DNA from: a bacterium
GTDB lineage: Bacteria; Patescibacteriota; Minisyncoccia; Phycocordibacterales; DATDWN01
Assembly: GCA_037134875.1 (NCBI GenBank)
Contig: JBAXLH010000002.1
Span: 27,719 to 91,718, forward strand
Reading direction: 5' to 3'
Length of the DNA stretch: 64,000 nt
A program made the position numbers and the translations under genes. The notes beneath the pieces were generated by a model. The model had not been told where the DNA came from and ran no database searches. It worked only from the letters and a program-made list of their open reading frames with translations. Of this stretch, positions 51,206-60,961 are shown one piece after another (within the stretch, counting starts at the first letter, position 1; each line of letters opens with the position of its first letter).

Positions 51206-52714
51206 ATGACAACAATAAAAATCGGAGAAATTATAAAACAAGCTCGGGAATACAAAAACCTTACCCAAGGAGAATTGGCAAAGAAATTACATACATCTCA
51301 ATCAGCGGTTGCAAGAATGGAAAAAGGAGAACAAAATCTAACAGCGGAACAGATTTCAAAAATCAGTAATATTTTAGGAAAATCTCTTGTAAAGATAGAA
51401 GGTGAAATGGATGATTTCAAAATAGAAGGAGGGAGAAAACTCTCTGGCTTCATACAAACAAACACCTCAAAAAATGGTGCTCTCGGACTCTTTTGTGCTT
51501 CCCTGCTCAACAAACAACCGACATTATTACACGGAATTCCTCACATTGAAGAAATCTCTCGCATTATAGAAATTTTTGAAAGTATCGGTGTAAAAATAGA
51601 ATGGGTAGCACACAATTCTGTTCGAATAATTCCTCCAAAAAAATTCTTCTTGAAAAATTTAAACGCAGAAAGTGCCGGAAAGATTCGATCTGTTCTTATG
51701 GTTATTGGTTCACTTATTCATTATGAAAAAAAATTTAGCATTCCACATGCCGGTGGTTGTAATATGGGACAGAGAACAATCGCTGCACACAGATATGGCT
51801 TTGAATCCCTTGGTGTCGATATCCAAACAAAAAATGACTGTTATGAAGTAACTCACAAAAAACTAAAACCTGCCGATATTGTCTTGTATGAGGCATCAGA
51901 TACTGCCACAGAAAATCTCCTCATTGCCTCAGCGCTAATTCCGGGAATAACAACTCTCAGATTTACTCCTCCAAATTATCAAGTCCAAGAAGTTTGTTTT
52001 TTCCTACAAAAATGTGGCGTAAAAATAGATGGAATCGGTACCAGTACACTCATTATACACGGCATAAAAGAGATAAATATTCCAATAGAATATTGGAATA
52101 GTGAAGATCCAACAGAATCAATGATGTTCATTGCGTCGGCAATAGTAACAAACTCCACACTGACAATTACCCGTTGTCCAATTGATTTTCTTTCTCTCGA
52201 ACTTTTGAAATTGGAAAAAATGGGTCTCATATATAGAACATCAAAAATATATATGGCAAAAAACGAACATACACGACTGTGTGATATTGTCATTTATCCT
52301 TCCAAACTAAAAGCTTCTCGTGACAAAATACACGCCTCGGCCTATCCAGGTATAAATACAGACAATCTTCCCTTCTTTGTGCCCATAGTAACTCAGGCAG
52401 AAGGCACGACGCTCATTCACGACTGGATGTGGGAAAATAGAGCAATATATTTCACAGAACTTAATCGACTTGGTGCCGATATCATCCTAGCAGATCCTCA
52501 TAGGGTTTTTGTTACTGGCCCAAGAATACTCAAAGCAAATCAAATCGTTTGCCCGCCCGCGCTCAGACCGTCAACAATTATTCTTGTTGCAATGCTTGGT
52601 GCAAAAGGAACTTCCATTTTACGCAATGTATATGCCATCAATCGCGGATACGAAAATATTGCCGAGCGACTAAACTCGATCGGTGCAAATATAAAACTAT
52701 TAAATGAATTCTAA
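51206..52714 (+). CDS. murA: XRE-family HTH domain fused to UDP-N-acetylglucosamine 1-carboxyvinyltransferase (MurA)
   Basis: 502 aa. Residues 1-65 are a Cro/C1 HTH (IIKQAREYKNLTQGELAKKLHTSQSAVARMEKGEQNLTAEQISKISNILG). The rest is EPT-fold MurA including a candidate catalytic Cys loop (PHAGGCNMGQRTIAAH). Confidence 0.8.
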   Translation: MTTIKIGEIIKQAREYKNLTQGELAKKLHTSQSAVARMEKGEQNLTAEQISKISNILGKSLVKIEGEMDDFKIEGGRKLSGFIQTNTSKNGALGLFCASLLNKQPTLLHGIPHIEEISRIIEIFESIGVKIEWVAHNSVRIIPPKKFFLKNLNAESAGKIRSVLMVIGSLIHYEKKFSIPHAGGCNMGQRTIAAHRYGFESLGVDIQTKNDCYEVTHKKLKPADIVLYEASDTATENLLIASALIPGITTLRFTPPNYQVQEVCFFLQKCGVKIDGIGTSTLIIHGIKEINIPIEYWNSEDPTESMMFIASAIVTNSTLTITRCPIDFLSLELLKLEKMGLIYRTSKIYMAKNEHTRLCDIVIYPSKLKASRDKIHASAYPGINTDNLPFFVPIVTQAEGTTLIHDWMWENRAIYFTELNRLGADIILADPHRVFVTGPRILKANQIVCPPALRPSTIILVAMLGAKGTSILRNVYAINRGYENIAERLNSIGANIKLLNEF

Positions 52715-52760
52715 AAATTAAAATCTTAAGTTGATTGAAGTATTGATTTGTTGACTATGT

Positions 52761-53165
52761 TTGTGTTATGGTGGCACCGGAATCAAACCTATGGACACTT
52801 CCAGTATTGATATGGAAATTATATTTGAAGGAATAGACAACCATACTCTCAGCGGACGGAAAATATTACAGATCCCTAAGCAAAATAATTTGAACATCCT
52901 AAGTCAGCAAGAAGTCCTTGAACTTTTCGAGACCAATAGTCCGGTTTTGGAGCGATTCAAGGTGTACAACCTTCTTCGCCGACCAGTTTTTATTTTTTGT
53001 AATGAAATGTTTCCTACTCCACATTCTGATGTAGCAAGTGGAGACAAAAGTGTATGGTATTTCTGTTGGATAGAAACATTTAACTCTTGGTACAAGTGCC
53101 ATTGGAGGGTTGAAGACACATGGAACGTAACAGTGGCAATATTAGTCAATCGCACCAGTAGATAG
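52761..53165 (+). CDS. Hypothetical protein (ends 11 nt before the island's left att repeat)
   Basis: 134 aa ORF. No motif. Confidence 0.3.
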   Translation: MCYGGTGIKPMDTSSIDMEIIFEGIDNHTLSGRKILQIPKQNNLNILSQQEVLELFETNSPVLERFKVYNLLRRPVFIFCNEMFPTPHSDVASGDKSVWYFCWIETFNSWYKCHWRVEDTWNVTVAILVNRTSR

Positions 53166-53322
53166 GTGCGTTTTTTGTGCCGGAGGGGAGAAGACTTGGT
53201 CAGGAATATTTTATTCGCCGTCGCTCATAAAATTTCCCGACCCGGCCTTCGCGACCAAGTCTGCTGACTTGGTACCCGCTCCGGCTTTCAAGTCTCCCAC
53301 GCAAAGCTTCGCTTTGCTTCCT

Positions 53323-53614
53323 GTGCGTTTATTTTACCAAATCCGAACCTGTTTTCAAAATAGCAATGTTGGCAATGACAACATCGGCAAGTAATGTGCC
53401 ACGCTCCACGCCTGTGGTGATGTGAAGCTAATCGTACGCAAAAGAATTCCGTCACGCCGTAGCGTCCACTACAGCGAACCTCACCGAGCACCTACAGGTG
53501 CTCGTCTCGTCTCGCTTCCGTTCCCGCTCCGTCGTTCCGCCCTCGCCTTTCCCCGCATCCATGCTTTTTTGTTTGCGGCGGTTTTTGAATTTTTTTTGGA
53601 ATGGCGCGGGGAAA
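53323..53614. repeat. Left copy of ~290-bp near-identical inverted repeat (IR-L)
   Basis: Reverse complement of 56306-56598 with about 3 mismatches and 1 indel. Confidence 0.85.
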
Positions 53615-53817
53615 GCTCGGGCGGGTTTCCTCTAAGGAGGAAACTGACGGAATTCACTGCTACGTTATCTGCACTTCAGTGACAACTCTAACATAATCAT
53701 TCGCCTCGGACATTCCTTTGGGCTAGTGGTGATATAAACATTGTGGTTATGTAACGACGCCCAAAACGGAATATGTCCGAAGCTACAAAACAAAAACACA
53801 AGACATTGAAATTGTTA

Positions 53818-54096
53818 CTACTTATGTTTTTTGTTTAAAATTTCATCTCTTTCACCGAACCTAAATAATTGTTGATCTTCAACAATACGATAATCATGTT
53901 TTACCACAGCGGCATAGACAGTAGCCTCATCAACATCCTGGCAGGTGTTTAAATCGTTATCTACCCATAAAAATGATCCATTCTCGGTCTGTAAAAAATA
54001 CTTAGACCCCCCTAAGTCTTTTAGCACAGCAAAGACCTTGACCTTCTGATTATCTCGATCAATACCTTTTTTCATTTCAAAATTTCCTTCATTCAT
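53818..54096 (-). CDS. Hypothetical small cargo protein (candidate partner or immunity protein)
   Basis: 92 aa. Lies 6 nt downstream of the large cargo gene on the same strand. Confidence 0.5.
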   Translation of the reverse strand: MNEGNFEMKKGIDRDNQKVKVFAVLKDLGGSKYFLQTENGSFLWVDNDLNTCQDVDEATVYAAVVKHDYRIVEDQQLFRFGERDEILNKKHK

Positions 54097-54101
54097 AATT
54101 A

Positions 54102-56319
54102 TTATTCTATAATATTAATTTTATCACGCCAAACGGGATTATTTCTTAGTTCATCCAAAAAACTAGTATCTTCTTCACTTGCATTTGTCAGTGCTGATCG
54201 AGGAATATTTATACTTTCTATATTTTCAAATTTAGGATTTCTGATCTGTGCTTCAAGATACCCATTAAGTGCGGGGCCAACATGAGATTGATTCTTGGCT
54301 TCAGCTTGACGTTTAAGGTCAACAGCTATTAGGGCTTTTGCAAGTGGGGCGTGATCAGCTGATATTTGTCTGCTTCTTGGATTTTCCACATTTTCATATT
54401 CATCTTCTAAAGCCCTATTTCCCTTAAAGCCAGAACCCTTGCTTTTAATTGTTTTGTTAGTCTTACCCGTAACGAAATTTATACCTTGTGCTTCCATTGA
54501 ATCTCCTTCTGTATATGAAGTTTCTGTGTCGGCCTTAAACTTGATGAATATGTCTCCATATTGTTTAGCCCCTCCGTACATATTTTCGTTATTAAAATCA
54601 TGAGCGTATGCACCATATAGCACAACTTCATTGCCATCCCGCCTGACACCCAATGCTTCTTCAACTGCTTTTCTCTTATTATAATATCTAGGACTTAACG
54701 ACCTAAACATTTTCTTCTTTTCGCTAGCACTCAATCCAAATACATCCTTGAATTCTCCAGAGTCAATAACTTTGCGAATTGAACCCATGCTGGTATTGAC
54801 GCTAATAAAACCTGTAGATTGACTGCGTTCAAATTCACTATTAAGCATTTCCGTGAGTTGTTCACGGCTGATTGTTTTTCGAAAATCCTGTCTAGAAACT
54901 GTAGCTTGCTCGTTTGCCTCTCTCGCTAATTGATAAGCTTGCTCGTCTACTCGCCCATCGACGGTCTCTAGTTCATACATATCAGCCAGTGAATCACGAA
55001 TATTTTGGAAAGATCTTTGAAGAGCCTCTCGTTTATCTTCCGGAGCTTCTGCAAGGGCACTATCTTGGTTTTTGGATGATACACCAAAATTTTTATAAAC
55101 ATTATTTTCTAGATATGTAGACATGTCTTCTTCTGGCGATAGGATAGTATCAAATTTTTGGGCAATTGGTGCTTCTGTCACATGAGTAGCAATTTCTTGA
55201 AGAGGAGTTTTTGGTTCGGCCCGAACATCTGGTTTGTGATCAAAACCTTCCGTATTGTTTATCACATCCCCATGACTCTGTGTCATATCTTCTGGCACGT
55301 GTCTCTCAAGGCCTTCTTTTGTTTCAGTCGCTTCAACTGGAATTGTCTTTTCCGTAATGACTGAAGTTTCTGGGGTTTCTGTTGGCTCAAACTGTTTTAT
55401 TTTTTCATATACAACTTTATTATCTTCTAAGCTACCTTCAGAAATTGGTAGAGATTTAACTACAGATTCAGTAACTTGTACTTCTGGAACTGGTATTGCT
55501 TCTTTCTGAAGATCTTTTAATTCAGTCTGTTGCTCTACTTTTTCAACAACAGATTGTTTTTCTGGTAACCCTTCGATATTTACTAGTTTTTCTTCTCTCT
55601 GCTGATCTGGTTTATACTCATCAACAGCGTGTGGAATTTTTAGTGTATAGATATTTTTACTTTCGTTTAATGTCGTATTCCTAAGATCAAGTAGGTTACT
55701 AATTCTTGGAGCATTTTCTGTTTTTAGGAGTTCTTTTTGTTCAGGACTTCTTGCTAAATTAAATCTTGGTGATTGTAAAGGCACTCGTCCTCTACCTGTC
55801 TCATTCGGTAAAGAATTTTGCTTGTTTCCCGAAATTAATTGAGGTTTTTGTTTATTACCGCCAATCGTATTCCCGGCTGAATTTCCACCTGGAATTTTTG
55901 CTAAAACTTTTTTAGCTTTTGAATCAAAATATAATTTAACGATAGTCAATGTACATTCTGGTAGCATATTAACAATTGGGATAAATCCAATAACAGCTCC
56001 AGCGATCATGGTTTTTTTAGAATATGTTTCCCCATTCATTTTGAAAACGAGCCAAAACGTAGCAAAAGCGAAACCATCTATAAACATGGCTAATATTTCA
56101 CCTGCTATCGGTATTAGACTTATAAGAGCTTCGAGCGTATCAAAAAATAGTGCGGTTCCAATTAAAACCATCCATGTCCCTTTTCCAATATTAGATTTAT
56201 TCTCTTCCACAATATGTCTATTATATAACAGACTAAAATCAATCTCAATAAAATTTATGAGGTAATTACTTATCTGCTTATCAATATGATATTGATCCTT
56301 AAAATTTCCCCGCGCCATT
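54102..56319 (-). CDS. Large hypothetical membrane protein with low-complexity linker and uncharacterised C-terminal domain
   Basis: ~740 aa from MARGNFKD (ATG inside the IR edge). The track's GTG-extended start at 56498 only reads through the repeat. N-terminal 4-5 TM helices. Long Q/E/T/P-rich region. C-terminal ~300-aa globular domain. Confidence 0.55.
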
Positions 56320-56598
56320 CCAAAAAAAAATTCAAAAACCGCCGCAAACAAAAAAGCATGGATGCGGGGAAATGCGAGGGCGGAACGACGGAGCGGGAAC
56401 GGAAGCGAGCCGAGACGAGCACCTGTAGGTGCTCGGTGAGGTTCGCTGTAGTGGACGCTACGGCGTGACGGAATTCTTTTGCGTACGATTAGCTTCACAT
56501 CACCACAGGCGTGGAGCGTGGCACATTACTTGCCGATGTTGTCATTGCCAACATTGCTATTTTGAAAACAGGTTCGGATTTGGTAAAATAAACGCACC
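56306..56598. repeat. Right copy of ~290-bp inverted repeat (IR-R)
   Basis: See IR-L. Contains a TTGGCA-17-TAATGT promoter-like sequence pointing into the cargo. Confidence 0.85.
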
Positions 56599-56710
56599 TT
56601 AAACGAACTAAAGGGTTCTGAACCCGAACCCAAGCGGAACGCGCAAAGCGCGTGCCAAGGATTTTTTGGCGGGATTGCAAGGGAATTTCCCGAATCCAGC
56701 GCGCTCACCG
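56598..56710. repeat. ~113-bp inverted repeat, copy C (partner at 58336-58450)
   Basis: cgaactaaagggttctgaacccgaacccaagcggaacgcgcaaagcgcgtgccaagg... is the exact reverse complement of 58340-58445. Confidence 0.8.
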
Positions 56711-56810
56711 CTACTTTTTTTTCGCCGAGGAGGAGGTTCGAAATCAGAAGCAATTTTGACTAATTTATTTTGCTTGCAAGACAAAAAGAATTTTTGCTAT
56801 ACTATGTTTG

Positions 56811-56885
56811 CAACCAACTGATCGAAAGGCTTTTTTAATGGCCGTCTTGGACAATTCGAAGCTTTTCGAGTTGGTTGCACCAGGA
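56811..56885 (+). promoter_or_regulatory. Nested inverted repeats (candidate operator/recombinase-binding site) between a TGn-TATACT promoter and the integrase start
   Basis: gcaaccaact...agttggttgc and aatggccgtc...gacggccatt. Confidence 0.35.
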
Positions 56886-56911
56886 CGGCCATTTAAGTTT
56901 TCAAAATATAT

Positions 56912-58564
56912 ATGAATAATATATCTCCGCAAAAATTCTTTTTGTATGCACGCAAGTCAACCGATGTCGAGGACAAGCAAGTTTTGAGTATTGATGCACA
57001 AATTGCAGAATTGCGCGCTTTCGCCAAAAATGAAAAGTTAGAAATCATGGAGGAATTTGTAGAAAAACGCACTGCGAAAATTCCAGGTCGTCCCATTTTT
57101 GGCGAAATGATGAGACGAATTGAGAAAGGTGAAGTAAATGGTATTTTAGCGTGGCATCCAGATCGTCTCGCGCGCAATTCTGTTGACGGCGGACAAATTA
57201 TTTACTTTGTTGATATCGGAAAACTTACCATGTTGAAATTTCCCTCGCACTGGTTTGAAAATACTCCGCAAGGAAAGTTTTCACTTTCCATGGCGTTCGT
57301 TCAGTCAAAATATTATGTTGATTCTCTTTCCGAAAATACCAAACGTGGACTTCGCCAAAAAGTACGCATGGGTATTTTCCCAAGCCAAGCTCCTCTCGGT
57401 TATATAAACGACAGTAGAACAAAAACGATTGTGGTAGAAAAGAAAAAATCTCGCATTATTCGCTTGGCTTTTGAAAAATATGTTAAAGGTGGTGAGCGAC
57501 TGGAGGATATCGCCACCTTTTTGGCCAAGTCCGGCATATTAACATGGAATGGAAAGAGAATCTCAAAAACTCGCACTTCTTTTATTTTATCAAACCCGTT
57601 CTATGTTGGTTTTTTCAACTACTCGGGAGAATTACACGAAGGCAAACACGAGCCAATCATTTCAAAAAAACTTTTTGATGAAGCACAGGAAATGTTGAGG
57701 TCTCGCGGTCAGCCAGAGCGTAAACCGAAAAACGAACCTCAACCTTTTTGCGGACTCATTTCCTGTGCTTCATGCGGAATGATGATAACTGGCGAACACA
57801 AATTCAAACGGCAGAAAAATGGAAATGTTCACGAGTATACATATTATCGTTGTACCAAAAAACGAAAAGATTTTCATTGTCCCGAATCTGCCGTTAGAGA
57901 AAAAGAATTGGATCGCCAGTTATCATCTCTAATACAAAAAGTTTCTTTGCCCAAAGACTGGGCGGAAGAATTATTGAAAATGGCAGAAAAAGATTTTCAA
58001 AATTCCGCCCCGTCTTTGGTTGCTTGTGTGAAAGAGAAAGAGATCAAAATTTCTGCTATATCACAAAAGTTGGAGCGACTTCTCAATGGCTATTTAGACC
58101 AAGATATTGAAAAGGAAATTTATCGTTCTGAAAAAGCAAAATTATTACTTTCCAAGAAGTCGCTCGAGGAAGAAATGACATCTCTTTCACACAAGCAAAA
58201 TGATTGGCTCGAACCGATGCAGAAGTGGTTAATATCCGCGCAGAATGTGGACAAAATCGCTTCTGATTCAGACCTTTTTGCTAAAAAGGTCTGTGCCAAA
58301 GAAATCTTTGGCTCGAACCTCCTCCTCGACGAAAAAACAGTGCGCGCAAGCGCGCTGGATTCGGGAAATTCCCTTGCAATCCCGCCAAAAAATCCTTGGC
58401 ACGCGCTTTGCGCGTTCCGCTTGGGTTCGGGTTCAGAACCCTTTAGTTCGTTTAAGGTGCCGGAGGGGAGACTTGAACTCCCATCCCTTTCGAGACACGA
58501 TTTTGAGTCGTGCGTGTATACCAATTCCACCACTCCGGCAATACATACAGAATACCCGAAATAG
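56912..58564 (+). CDS. Large serine recombinase (serine integrase)
   Basis: 550 aa. Resolvase catalytic domain (FLYARKSTDVEDKQVLSIDAQ; ILAWHPDRLARN). Recombinase domain. Zinc ribbon (CGLISCASCGMMITG...YYRCTKKRKDFHCP). Coiled coil. The 3' end reads through repeat C' and tRNA-Leu, so the true C-terminus is uncertain. Confidence 0.8.
   Translation: MNNISPQKFFLYARKSTDVEDKQVLSIDAQIAELRAFAKNEKLEIMEEFVEKRTAKIPGRPIFGEMMRRIEKGEVNGILAWHPDRLARNSVDGGQIIYFVDIGKLTMLKFPSHWFENTPQGKFSLSMAFVQSKYYVDSLSENTKRGLRQKVRMGIFPSQAPLGYINDSRTKTIVVEKKKSRIIRLAFEKYVKGGERLEDIATFLAKSGILTWNGKRISKTRTSFILSNPFYVGFFNYSGELHEGKHEPIISKKLFDEAQEMLRSRGQPERKPKNEPQPFCGLISCASCGMMITGEHKFKRQKNGNVHEYTYYRCTKKRKDFHCPESAVREKELDRQLSSLIQKVSLPKDWAEELLKMAEKDFQNSAPSLVACVKEKEIKISAISQKLERLLNGYLDQDIEKEIYRSEKAKLLLSKKSLEEEMTSLSHKQNDWLEPMQKWLISAQNVDKIASDSDLFAKKVCAKEIFGSNLLLDEKTVRASALDSGNSLAIPPKNPWHALCAFRLGSGSEPFSSFKVPEGRLELPSLSRHDFESCVYTNSTTPAIHTEYPK
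58336..58450. repeat. Inverted repeat copy C'
   Basis: Reverse complement of 56598-56710. Confidence 0.8.
58456..58539 (-). tRNA. tRNA-Leu (anticodon CAA), type II with long variable arm
   Basis: Minus strand. Acceptor GCCGGAG/CUCCGGC. D-arm GUG-GAAUUGGUAUA-CAC. Anticodon stem CACGA/UCGUG with loop CUCAAAA. Variable arm UCUCGAAAGGGAU. T-arm GGGAG-UUCAAGU-CUCCC. Discriminator A. CCA not encoded. Confidence 0.85.
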
Positions 58565-58603
58565 CCAAAAAATCAAATTGTGGTACTGTATATTCGTACT
58601 AAT

Positions 58604-59497
58604 ATGAAGCCAAGAGTTATAGTCATTTTGGGGCCAACAGCCACAGGCAAGTCCAATCTAGCCGTACAGATAGCCAAAAAATATAATGGTGAGATTATTT
58701 CTGCTGATTCAAGACAGGTATACACAGGACTCAATATCGGCACAGGCAAAATCACAAAAAAGGAAATGCAAGGTGTCCCCCACCATATGCTCGACGTGGC
58801 AAATCCAAAAAAAAGATATGATATTTCAACATGGCAAAAAGAAACAAAGAAAATAATTTCTAATATTTATTCTCGAAATAAATTACCGATCATTTGTGGT
58901 GGTACTGGTTTTTACATTCAATCAATCGTTGAAAATTTTATTCTGCCAAAAGTTCCACCAAATAAAAAACTGCGAGAAAAACTGGAGAAAAAATCAGCGA
59001 CAGAACTTTTTGAAATTTTAAAAAAACTTGATTTACAGAGAGCAAAAACAATTGAAAAAGAAAATCCTGTGCGTCTCGTGCGAGCGATTGAAATCGCAAC
59101 CGCTCTTGGTGGAGTCCCCTCTCTCGATCGAGTAAAGAGTCAATCATACGAGTGTCTGCAAATCGGACTTACTCTTCCCGACGAGAAACTCAAAGAAAGA
59201 ATAAAAATTCGTCTCGAGAAAAGACTCGAAACTGGAATGCTCGCTGAGGCAAAAAAACTTCACCAGCAAGGTCTCTCATGGAAGCGAATGTTTGAGCTCG
59301 GACTCGAATACAGATACGAAGCACTCCTCCTGCAAAACAAAATCTCGAAAACAGATTTCGTCGAGAAACTGAACACAGAAATCTGGCACTATGCCAAACG
59401 CCAAATCACATGGTTTAAACGCGACAAACAGATTCATTGGTTCTCCCCGACACAAGTTAGAGAAATTGAAAAAGTAGTCAAAAACTTTTTAGATTGA
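58604..59497 (+). CDS. miaA: tRNA dimethylallyltransferase
   Basis: P-loop VIVILGPTATGKSNLAVQIA...ISADSRQVYTGLNIGTGKIT. Start taken at MKPRV. Confidence 0.85.
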   Translation: MKPRVIVILGPTATGKSNLAVQIAKKYNGEIISADSRQVYTGLNIGTGKITKKEMQGVPHHMLDVANPKKRYDISTWQKETKKIISNIYSRNKLPIICGGTGFYIQSIVENFILPKVPPNKKLREKLEKKSATELFEILKKLDLQRAKTIEKENPVRLVRAIEIATALGGVPSLDRVKSQSYECLQIGLTLPDEKLKERIKIRLEKRLETGMLAEAKKLHQQGLSWKRMFELGLEYRYEALLLQNKISKTDFVEKLNTEIWHYAKRQITWFKRDKQIHWFSPTQVREIEKVVKNFLD

Positions 59498-60961
59498 TTC
59501 TGCGAATTTTTGCGAAATGAGACCAAAATCACTGTTGCTCATAAAAACAATTACGTCACCTTTTTTCTTTATAGATTCGAGTTTGTTTAGCGCATCCTCA
59601 GGGCTTGATAGCGAAAAAGATATTTTGCCCAGTTTTTCAACGCTTTCTTTTATCACTGAAACATCAATAAAATTATTTTTGTTGTCATTATCTTTAAATG
59701 GCGGGCACGAAACAATAGATACATCCGCAAATGAAAGAGCTCTGGCGTATTCGGGCTCAAACATTTTTTGTCTACTGGTTATGGATCTTGGCTCAAAGAC
59801 ACAAACAATCCTGCGCTTTGGATAGTGTTGTCGGAGTCCCTGCAGAGTCACATTTACTGCCGTCGGGTGATGAGCAAAATCTCTGATAACAGTATAGTCT
59901 TGATTTTCTGCAATAATCTCCTGCCTTTCTTTAACGCCAGAATAATTTTTAACCCCAGAAATTATTTCAGAAATTTTTAATCCTTCTAGAAGAGACAGAA
60001 CTATCACAGACAGTGTATTTTCGATATTGTAGTCTCCAAATAATGGTACAAAAATATTTGAATACATCTTTCCTTTAAAACTAAAAGAGAACAGGGTGCC
60101 GTCTGACGTAACTTTATTTACCGCGTACCAAGCATCATTATTTTTTCCTTTTCCATAGATAACTATTTTTCCTTCGCATTGTTTCAAATCAACAAATTTT
60201 TTAGCCGACTCATTCAAAATCAAAAAACCTTTTTTTGGAATTTCTTCCACTAAAAATTGAAATGCTTGTACATAATCTGTAAATGTTGGATACAGATCAA
60301 TATGATCATGTTCGATGGACGTAATAATTGCTGACGTGACATTGTACCGCAAAAATTTTGGTGCCTTATCAAAAAACGCACAATCATATTCATCTCCCTC
60401 AAAAATTACAAATTTTGTTTTCTTTGATCCAAGGGAATAACTTTCTCCAGAACCTTGAAAAGAACCGCCGATCATATACGAAGGTTTCCTACCAGCTTCT
60501 TTGAATATATACGTCAAGAGTGAACTGGTAGTTGTTTTACCATGAGTTCCTGCAACAACAAGAGATCTTTTATTTTTGGTTAAAATTTCTCCCAAAATTT
60601 CTGCACCCGACATCATGGGTATGGACCTTCTTTTTGCTTCGACAATTTCCAGTGAATTTGGAGGGAGCATATTTCCGGGAACAAATACATCAATACCCTT
60701 CAAATTTTTTATTGACATTTTTTTGCACACAATTCCATTCTCTTCTAGCACGGTGCTCATCGGAGGATAACAATGTTCATCACTTGCCGAAATTTTGTAA
60801 CCCATTTGTGATAAAAGACAAGTAACAGAAGCCATGGCTTTACCACACGCAGCTGAAATATGTATACTAGATTTTTTGTTTAATTTTCCTACAATTCTGC
60901 CTCTTTCTGAAGCGTTTGGCAGTAAGTTACGTTTTGCTTCATAGTAATAATCATATGATTT
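59489..60961 (-). CDS. Mur ligase family protein (Mpl/MurC-like)
   Basis: YPPMSTVLEENGI, AGTHGKTTTSSLL and FVIFEGDEYDCAFFDKAPKFLRY closely parallel Mpl. Start taken at MKSYDYYY. Confidence 0.75.
   Translation of the reverse strand, partial: KSYDYYYEAKRNLLPNASERGRIVGKLNKKSSIHISAACGKAMASVTCLLSQMGYKISASDEHCYPPMSTVLEENGIVCKKMSIKNLKGIDVFVPGNMLPPNSLEIVEAKRRSIPMMSGAEILGEILTKNKRSLVVAGTHGKTTTSSLLTYIFKEAGRKPSYMIGGSFQGSGESYSLGSKKTKFVIFEGDEYDCAFFDKAPKFLRYNVTSAIITSIEHDHIDLYPTFTDYVQAFQFLVEEIPKKGFLILNESAKKFVDLKQCEGKIVIYGKGKNNDAWYAVNKVTSDGTLFSFSFKGKMYSNIFVPLFGDYNIENTLSVIVLSLLEGLKISEIISGVKNYSGVKERQEIIAENQDYTVIRDFAHHPTAVNVTLQGLRQHYPKRRIVCVFEPRSITSRQKMFEPEYARALSFADVSIVSCPPFKDNDNKNNFIDVSVIKESVEKLGKISFSLSSPEDALNKLESIKKKGDVIVFMSNSDFGLISQKFAESI

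Follow-up and report, generated by a model that had tools for sequence, protein, structure and literature searches.

Large serine recombinases (LSRs) exchange strands across a 2-bp crossover and do not produce 20-nt direct repeats. In the Tn4451/TnpX system, promoters form at the element joint, while the yeast 2-micron plasmid, whose FLP protein is a tyrosine recombinase, is an autonomous replicon that does not integrate. Phages with integration-dependent immunity, reportedly described by Broussard and colleagues in 2013, carry their attachment site attP inside a coding region, so that the C terminus of the encoded protein is altered by integration. Islander-type tRNA islands use tyrosine integrases, regenerate the 3' part of the tRNA gene, and leave a displaced repeat behind (PMC4383910). 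Among the tycheposons of Prochlorococcus, 27 of 937 carry an LSR rather than a tyrosine recombinase (bioRxiv 10.1101/2020.12.28.424599); in a term search of the main text of that preprint, "inverted repeat" occurred only in the reference list. Here we describe an LSR element beside a tRNA-Leu(CAA) gene in a patescibacterial genome. The window, that is, the whole stretch of DNA analyzed, comprises 64,000 nt of contig JBAXLH010000002.1 (assembly GCA_037134875.1), and all positions below refer to it unless a locus is named. An initial annotation had proposed an integrative island of about 5.3 kb at 53176-58475. Our data indicate that the window probably holds an integrated member of a very large family of small cargo elements that are moved by an LSR in Patescibacteria and that end at quite different junctions.

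Two abutting inverted repeats and an internal attP

Judged by its junctions, the element appears to occupy 53327-58460 (5,134 bp), inserted precisely where the tRNA-Leu gene has its 3' end. Thus, the initial annotation rightly placed an integrative element at this tRNA between core genes, but its ends and its length of about 5.3 kb had to be revised. Two long inverted repeats (IRs), which had escaped it, organize the interior: IR-A brackets the cargo, and IR-B brackets the recombinase gene. The parts are as follows, where A and B denote the arms of IR-A and IR-B.

53323-53326, plus strand: site 2, the left junction core GTGC, of attL type (X end/A), from junction comparison
53323-53614, plus strand: left arm of IR-A (A), carrying the predicted outward promoter P_A on the minus strand at 53358-53331
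53615-53817, plus strand: unique spacer, the first ~35 nt of which extend the conserved A module
56305-56597, minus strand: right arm of IR-A (A'), with P_A on the plus strand at 56562-56589, directed toward the recombinase gene
56594-56597, minus strand: site 3, the core of the putative internal attP (GCAC on the plus strand), B/A, inverted relative to both outer junctions
56594-56741, plus strand: left arm of IR-B, a copy of the trailer/terminator module downstream of P_A, with a terminator hairpin degraded by clustered mismatches
58313-58460, minus strand: right arm of IR-B, the putative new 3' trailer of tRNA-Leu on the minus strand, with hairpins and a predicted intrinsic terminator
58456-58539, minus strand: tRNA-Leu(CAA), the intact target gene (ARAGORN; Rfam tRNA, 58.6 bits; 58458-58539 is also given)
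58457-58460, plus strand: site 4, the right junction core GTGC, of attR type (B/tRNA), complementary to tRNA positions of about 71 to 74

Over their 292 nt, the arms of IR-A (53323-53614 and 56305-56597) differ by 2 mismatches and 1 indel, and those of IR-B (56594-56741 and 58313-58460) match over 148 nt at 95% identity, with about 7 differences. The two repeats abut, meeting at 56594-56597 in what reads as a complete, inverted attP (B/A). Brought into one orientation, four sites (53177, 53323, the reverse complement of 56594-56597, and 58457) have only GTGC in common. From this comparison, site 3 would be the unsplit attP, and sites 2 and 4 would be the hybrid junctions expected from recombination of attP with attB. 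The tRNA is whole after insertion, and the right arm B (~147 nt) substitutes for its trailer.

In the mechanism that we propose, the recombinase would join attP (B/A) with an attB consisting of a tRNA 3' end and its T-rich trailer; in the window, the LSR element would have been inserted between the tRNA and a separate segment, X, which is described below. A chromosome lacking the element would be expected to read ...GCTTTGCTTCCT-GTGC-CGGAGGGG..., and precise excision at GTGC should yield ...GCTTTGCTTCCT-GTGC-CGGAGGGGAGACTTG....

Some further properties of the arms were observed. Where the arms of IR-B differ, the seven changes are concentrated in the terminator hairpin (56699-56722 versus 58332-58355): the tRNA-side copy has kept a clean hairpin, the internal copy has lost it, and the divergent patch of the internal copy resembles the "VAV" tail variant of other homologues. 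The A module is more complete in its left copy, as the right copy ends at the start codon of a cargo gene. An 11-nt perfect long-range complement (53445-53455 and 53636-53646; GAATTCCGTCA and TGACGGAATTC) closes a GC-rich A-module domain of ~200 nt and is also found in L001 and L015.

The same architecture recurs across Patescibacteria

Related loci were fetched by scans of public assemblies and are labeled L plus a number. When each species was represented by a single genome, 80 loci were retrieved, and a metagenome scan with the A half-site as the pattern returned at least 119 more; a viral-contig scan for the same half-site returned nothing. The recombinase has 7,931 homologues at an E value of ≤1e-20, the best of which are 75 to 88% identical, and the named top homologues come from metagenome-assembled genomes of Parcubacteria/Patescibacteria. 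Counts of recombinase genes refer to the 112 related genes listed, with the window's own population excluded. A convergent tRNA gene lies directly past a B arm of ~147 nt in 78 of these 112, and the tRNAs targeted span 27 species and 11 amino acids, Leu being the commonest (32 cases).

The layout flank/A-cargo-A'/B'-recombinase-B/tRNA, with abutting IR-A and IR-B, was found in over 40 independent assemblies that stem from separate studies (L006, L016, L020, L028, L032, L040, L041, L043, L046, L072, L076, L077, and many metagenome loci) and is present wherever the upstream sequence suffices. Left junctions join a native, mostly T-rich flank to A; middle junctions read B/A, and right junctions read B/tRNA. 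In 13 loci including the window, these three junction types share 3 to 8 nt, and the shared bases are the complement of the tRNA discriminator region. Of the related loci, 12 have their left end complete, and all of these pass from native flank into A and have no tRNA repeat there. The identity between IR arms ranges from 100% down to 83% across loci; therefore, the repeats are genuine, and some of the insertions must be old. As the repeats exceed the k-mers of assemblers in length, many contigs start or stop within the arms. Literature searches returned no description of the family or its architecture, an absence that is not proof of novelty; the family, which is very large, thus appears to be undescribed in Patescibacteria.

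Two loci display compound or reduced arrangements. L054 (1559-10270) is a nested array of five inverted-repeat pairs and three tRNA genes, which suggests that elements of this kind have inserted within or beside each other. In L169 (630-830), a tRNA-Leu(CAA) gene is followed by the first 62 nt of B fused to the last ~45 nt of A (a remnant of ~110 nt) and then by a native terminator; this looks like the deletion scar of a family element.

The recombinase gene, its tails, and the cargo

The coding features of the element are the following.

53818-54096, minus strand: cargo open reading frame (ORF) of 92 aa, no family match
54102-56318, minus strand: cargo ORF of 738 aa if the ATG at 56318 is taken as its start (738/798 aa), hydrophobic in its N-terminal part, with the start codon inside IR-A'
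56774-56803, plus strand: candidate promoter of the recombinase gene, TTGCAA-18-TATACT, by consensus match only
56912-58564, plus strand: LSR ORF of 550 aa, of which residues 1 to 467 come from unique DNA and 468 to 516 from the B arm, followed by antisense tRNA

The 550-aa LSR named in the initial annotation was borne out by its domains: an N-terminal resolvase catalytic domain (PF00239, 2.9e-19, residues 10 to 154) with YARKST near the N terminus, followed by PF07508 (Recombinase, 2.2e-17) and the zinc ribbon PF13408 (Zn_ribbon_recom, 5.3e-09). The best PHROG is PHROG 95, "integrase" (6.6e-80). Similarities to NCBIfam CcrB and XisF are weak, with scores far under the cutoffs. The enzyme is a bona fide LSR and not a member of the CcrB or XisF family. 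A search of 53100-58600 for a tyrosine integrase found none. A strong 17-bp hairpin in the 5' leader (56834-56896), just before the start codon of the recombinase gene, may be regulatory.

The recombinase ORF meets no stop codon until it has passed B, the core, and the antisense tRNA. Homologues fall into two C-terminal classes. About 25 of the 120 best end in ...SSILV-xLLYQVRTYFQN[KR], where the ORF passes from B into A; most others among these 120 run into the antisense tRNA and show the tail ...G[LFI]EP..., which is derived from the T-loop. For the recombinase of the window, the two forms would be a native tail ending ...FKVRLFYQIRTCFQN... and an integrated read-through. The B-encoded tail is open in all variants, but its conservation is confounded by the hairpins and terminator on the opposite strand, and that of the A-encoded tail is likewise confounded by P_A. 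A cluster look-up for an alternative-tail isoform in the window's population returned only a truncated copy.

In L146 (6620-8081) and L097 (959-2087), the recombinase gene is split exactly at residue 83/84 (AWHP/DRL) by an insertion of 1.1 to 1.5 kb; the ends of L095, and probably L088, appear to be further cases. Within the L146 insertion lies a transposase gene of the IS110 family (Pfam, 1.7e-19 and 7.6e-19), and Rfam found no intron in the insertions of L146 and L097. This looks like a site-specific insertion sequence (IS) that targets this recombinase gene.

The two-gene cargo reported earlier is likewise present (ORFs of 738/798 and 92 aa), and neither ORF has a credible match in Pfam, PHROGs, NCBIfam, or PADLOC. 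Cargos across loci are varied small accessory genes, including one with a prepilin-like N terminus (L016) and one with an HExxH metalloprotease motif (L095); the remaining cargos were judged by eye from their N-terminal sequences and not against libraries. The orientation of the cargo relative to the recombinase gene varies between loci. There was no small ORF common to the cargos examined.

Such an arrangement could also be read as a domesticated, non-mobile inversion switch, in which the recombinase flips the cargo and/or its own gene and the association with a tRNA is incidental. Long inverted repeats do bracket both segments, cargo orientation varies as just described, some homologues are labeled "DNA invertase Pin-like," and L086 and L185 show the recombinase segment in both orientations on one chromosome. 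Nonetheless, we consider a switch improbable. The same recombinase, 75 to 88% identical, sits at 27 tRNA species in many lineages and with unrelated cargo; moreover, the junctions follow the attL/attP/attR logic of insertion, and inversion of either segment alters no junction sequence. The large C-terminal integrase domains and the "integrase" PHROG also speak against it, and the orientation in L086 is probably an assembler pivot. Indeed, the two orientations in L086 and L185 were rejected as proof of in situ inversion after an arm-by-arm comparison pointed to an assembler pivot or a chimera: their identical 147-nt arms exceed the assembler k-mer, and L096 may be a pivot of the same kind.

The att arms as predicted transcription modules

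Read on the tRNA-sense strand from the core, B contains two hairpins and then an intrinsic terminator. Hairpin 2 (11 bp) covaries strongly: 45 nonredundant sequences gave 80 double-change cells versus 24.6 in shuffles, and none of 500 shuffles reached 80; control alignments in which the partner was slid by 1 to 3 columns gave 4 to 25. G-U pairs in the B arm occur only on the tRNA-sense strand. The terminator hairpin is nonhomologous between subfamilies and yet is followed by a T-run in all 45 sequences, and the inverted repeat ends just past that T-run. In the window, the predicted terminator has its stem at 58355-58342 and its T-run extending to about 58332 on the minus strand. These features suggest that B supplies the tRNA with a substitute 3' trailer and a terminator.

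The first 40 nt of A contain a predicted outward σ70-type promoter, P_A (TTG[AG]AA-16-TGnTA[CA]AAT). Among the matches listed, 114 of 126 distinct A half-sites carry it, with the consensus TTG[AG]AA-16-TA[CA]AAT. Conservation of the −35 motif is independent evidence, because this motif lies outside the pattern used for fetching the loci. The −10 motif stops 9 nt short of the core's end, which puts the predicted start at the core; the window has matches at 56562-56589 (plus strand) and 53358-53331 (minus strand). In the unsplit attP, P_A combines with B into a closed promoter-to-terminator unit; it spans ~130 nt and lies antisense to the tail of the recombinase. In L041 (5215-5260), A ends 4 nt from the ATG of miaA, where P_A would restore transcription of a gene severed from the tRNA promoter by the insertion and would yield a nearly leaderless mRNA. 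Together, the B terminator and the A promoter would render the insertion neutral in its effect on transcription, for the tRNA as well as for the genes downstream.

The whole A arm was also considered as one structured RNA and rejected, as its fold z score of −0.96 is not significant; local conserved hairpins remain. Rfam 15, run across 52000-60000 at an E value of ≤1, matched the tRNA only and gave no match for the A arm, the B arm, or X.

The tRNA 3'-end repeat belongs to a separate segment

The initial annotation took as attL and attR a 20-nt direct repeat of the tRNA 3' end, with a 2-nt indel. Alignment and shuffling confirmed the repeat itself, apart from coordinates that were one base off. 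GTGCCGGAGGGGAGA (15 nt) has just two exact occurrences in the window, one at 53177-53191 and the other at 58457-58471, and gave no match in 100 shuffles; past these 15 nt comes a 2-nt insertion, after which similarity resumes (AGACTTG). The surroundings of the left copy are these.

53151-53176, plus strand: native terminator hairpin and T-run after orf124, the original chromosomal flank (F), from a terminator scan and the sequence
53177: site 1, between the terminator flank and the tRNA fragment
53177-53198, minus strand: tRNA-Leu 3'-end copy (15 nt exact, 2-nt insertion, 6 nt), the distal end of X and apparently no att site of the recombinase element
53181-53322, minus strand: X, 142 nt, with a hairpin (53301-53317), an inverted T-arm copy TTCAAGTCTCCC (53287-53298), the GCCGGAGC motif, and the tRNA 3'-end copy

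X is ~75% similar to a segment of L008 (6312-6458) that lies 30 nt downstream of tRNA-Leu(GAG), with no recombinase element between them, and whose distal end copies the 3' end of its own tRNA. Furthermore, eight other tRNAs (Met, three Arg, Pro, Ser, Leu-UAA, and Gly) of the 218 in the fetched loci have an 18-nt copy of their own 3' end 111 to 166 nt downstream. No recombinase element stands between tRNA and copy in any of these cases. The corresponding segments measure 110 to 170 nt, each ends in a copy of its own tRNA 3' end, and most have an inverted T-arm copy.

L020, 11513-11661: X-like segment
L123, 2780-2969: X-like segment
L106, 165-299: X-like segment
L003, 2682-2860: X-like segment
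L022, L029, L075, and L079: further X-like segments

Five of nine printed sequences (L008, L020, L123, L106, and L003) match the layout in the window, and the other four do so loosely. The shared layout comprises a terminator that is optional, a GCAAA...TTTGC hairpin, the T-arm of the same tRNA copied in inverted orientation, the GGCGGAGC motif, a GGUCG.../...UGACC helix with a fixed G-U pair (seen by eye in four copies), the 3'-end copy, and the native terminator. A consensus fold of ten sequences downstream of such tRNAs gave no result, as they are too heterogeneous. Removing 53327-58460 in silico leaves tRNA-Leu followed by X at the same spacing. On these grounds, X appears to predate, or to be independent of, the recombinase element, and it may be a trailer RNA with a defined structure or else a scar left by another class of integrative element.

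An island at 53176-58475 with the tRNA repeats as its att sites and a serine recombinase as its enzyme would account for a repeat that is real and nonrandom and that brackets both recombinase and cargo. We nevertheless hold it very improbable. The repeat is not an att site of the recombinase element, because serine integrases use a 2-bp crossover and because the left ends of relatives lack a tRNA repeat (12 of 12 complete left ends). The A arm begins 146 nt inside the proposed island, and the left junction shares only GTGC with attP and attR; when the putative hybrid junctions at 53323 and 58457 were compared in place of the 20-nt repeats, GTGC was again all that they had in common. In addition, the intervening 142 nt are homologous to a trailer element that exists without the recombinase element. 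The T-arm fragment noted near the left repeat is indeed there, in inverted orientation (TTCAAGTCTCCC at 53287-53298), yet it forms part of X and not of the recombinase att site. Both repeat and fragment belong to X; therefore, the repeat does not count as evidence for nested recombination by this recombinase, such as had been read from the fragment.

Genomic context

Domain hits bore out the flanking core genes named at the outset, as a helix-turn-helix (HTH)-MurA fusion and miaA; a Mur ligase gene and murB also flank the element. The HTH-MurA fusion (502 aa, 51206-52714) combines an N-terminal HTH_3 domain with a fold of the MurA/EPSP-synthase type. Five contigs of the window's population encode it without any difference, and L088 has a 54%-identical homologue.

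Contig CAZJNJ010000002.1 of assembly GCA_964547445.1 is 99.99% identical to the window. Only 2 bases differ in 21.5 kb between the window and this public record (L081), and by BLAST mismatch counts, both seem to lie in the left arm of IR-A (53323-53614 in the window versus 12118-12409 in L081). In L081, the left and right arms of IR-A have zero mismatches. The differences in the left arm could reflect gene conversion or consensus mixing between arms.

Evidence on a free form

The free form would be a nonreplicating circle of ~5.1 kb in which two inverted attP regions of ~440 bp separate the cargo segment from the recombinase segment, and integration would normally use the attP overlapping the 3' end of the recombinase gene. 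We infer, rather than observe, a circle with two inverted attP sites. No common replication gene was recognized in the cargo ORFs listed; therefore, the circle would be a transfer intermediate and not a plasmid. L015 (arms 90.6%) has attP-type junctions on both sides of the recombinase gene. L095, a contig of 4.2 kb whose B arms have diverged, likewise has such junctions on both sides, and its order is that of a circular permutation, recombinase-B/A-cargo-A'/B'-promoter-recombinase. Both fit a nonintegrated form with two inverted attP regions. In L023 (7692-9607, arms 87%) and L003 (7584-9557, arms 83%), the order is tRNA(+)/B'-recombinase-B/tRNA(−), with two different tRNAs and no cargo, which suggests that the internal attP recombined with a second tRNA gene, an event that would invert or rearrange the chromosome. 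L130 and L147, in which the inverted repeats lead into B on both sides of the cargo, were discarded as evidence for a circle, because assembler pivots are possible.

Several observations count against an integrated, mobile member of an LSR family, or at least against parts of that account. Terminal direct overlaps were found in no contig, and no circle was closed. In L095, some 1.2 kb is missing, and an IS interrupts the recombinase gene. Contigs reading recombinase-B/A, or cargo with B on both sides, may be assembler pivots through identical inverted repeats. The comparison with relatives that the initial annotation had proposed was made by exact-protein look-ups of the MurA fusion and MiaA; it retrieved only contigs of the same population and no empty tRNA-Leu site. 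The element is present in all six other contigs of that population, five of which break within IR-A. No recombination directionality factor was recognized, which leaves excision a hypothesis; to our knowledge, such factors share no common signature. The junction comparison resolves a core of 3 to 4 nt, GTG(C), and not the crossover dinucleotide or the assignment of half-sites, and the promoter and terminator calls come from matches to a consensus or a structure. An accidental origin of the inverted repeats, at this locus or in assembly (from two partial copies, nesting of one insertion in another, or a chimera, for instance), is scarcely credible: metagenome assemblers do break or pivot at repeats, and nested arrays such as L054 exist, but the same layout stands in more than 40 independent assemblies, some of them with arms diverged to 83 to 96%, which no k-mer artifact would give, and the arms in the window differ at 2+1 and about 7 positions.

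Discussion

With thousands of homologues, 75 to 88% identical, in several classes, the family may be one of the main vehicles of horizontal gene transfer and accessory-gene turnover in Patescibacteria, whose genomes are very small and have few recognized mobile elements. Its target is the 3' end of almost any tRNA gene, and its enzyme belongs to a class prized for genome engineering. The att arms appear to be shaped to keep the insertion transcriptionally neutral. The conserved, inverted second attP lies outside the textbook cycle of serine integrases and poses the question of how direction, copy number, and rearrangement are controlled. At a practical level, inverted repeats of 148 to 400 nt systematically break metagenome assemblies beside tRNA genes.

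A more far-reaching proposal, which we regard as rather doubtful, is that these elements form a distinct class of serine-recombinase elements whose transferable form is a flip-flop circle with two inverted attP sites. The att region would then be a small gene, with its promoter in A and its start at the crossover point, a structured RNA of ~130 nt, and its terminator in B, the whole being antisense to the recombinase tail; integration would swap both the C terminus of the recombinase and the source of the RNA (its own promoter versus the tRNA trailer). Expression of the recombinase, or its directionality, would thus be governed by the integration state without a separate directionality factor. 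By keeping an internal attP, the elements would also promote inversions from one tRNA gene to another in these tiny genomes, in line with what L023 and L003 suggest.

With phiC31, Bxb1, A118, SPbeta, CcrA/B of SCCmec, and XisF, the element shares the Resolvase, Recombinase, and zinc-ribbon domains, short common sequences at the junctions, and a recombinase gene beside attP. In contrast to these textbook LSR systems, it targets the extreme 3' end of many tRNAs, has a second, inverted attP, and runs its ORF across the core; its att arms are apparently functional modules (terminator and promoter) of ~150 to 400 nt, and no directionality factor was seen. Above all, it is the conserved second attP that sets the element apart from them. 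Phages with attP in an ORF, and Tn4451, are similar in the coding region across the attachment site and in the promoters at the joint, respectively; they differ in that the ORF here is that of the serine recombinase itself, with a tail swap that is confounded by an opposite-strand promoter. Islander-type islands have in common with the element a tRNA target, a tRNA gene that stays functional, and a small cargo island; here, however, the tRNA is unsplit, and the repeat that looks displaced belongs to X. Tycheposons are likewise small integrative cargo elements at tRNA genes, but they belong to another phylum, and many carry replication genes. Finally, the 2-micron plasmid resembles the inferred circle in that two long inverted repeats with recombinase targets divide it, whereas no replication gene was recognized in the cargos listed for the present family.

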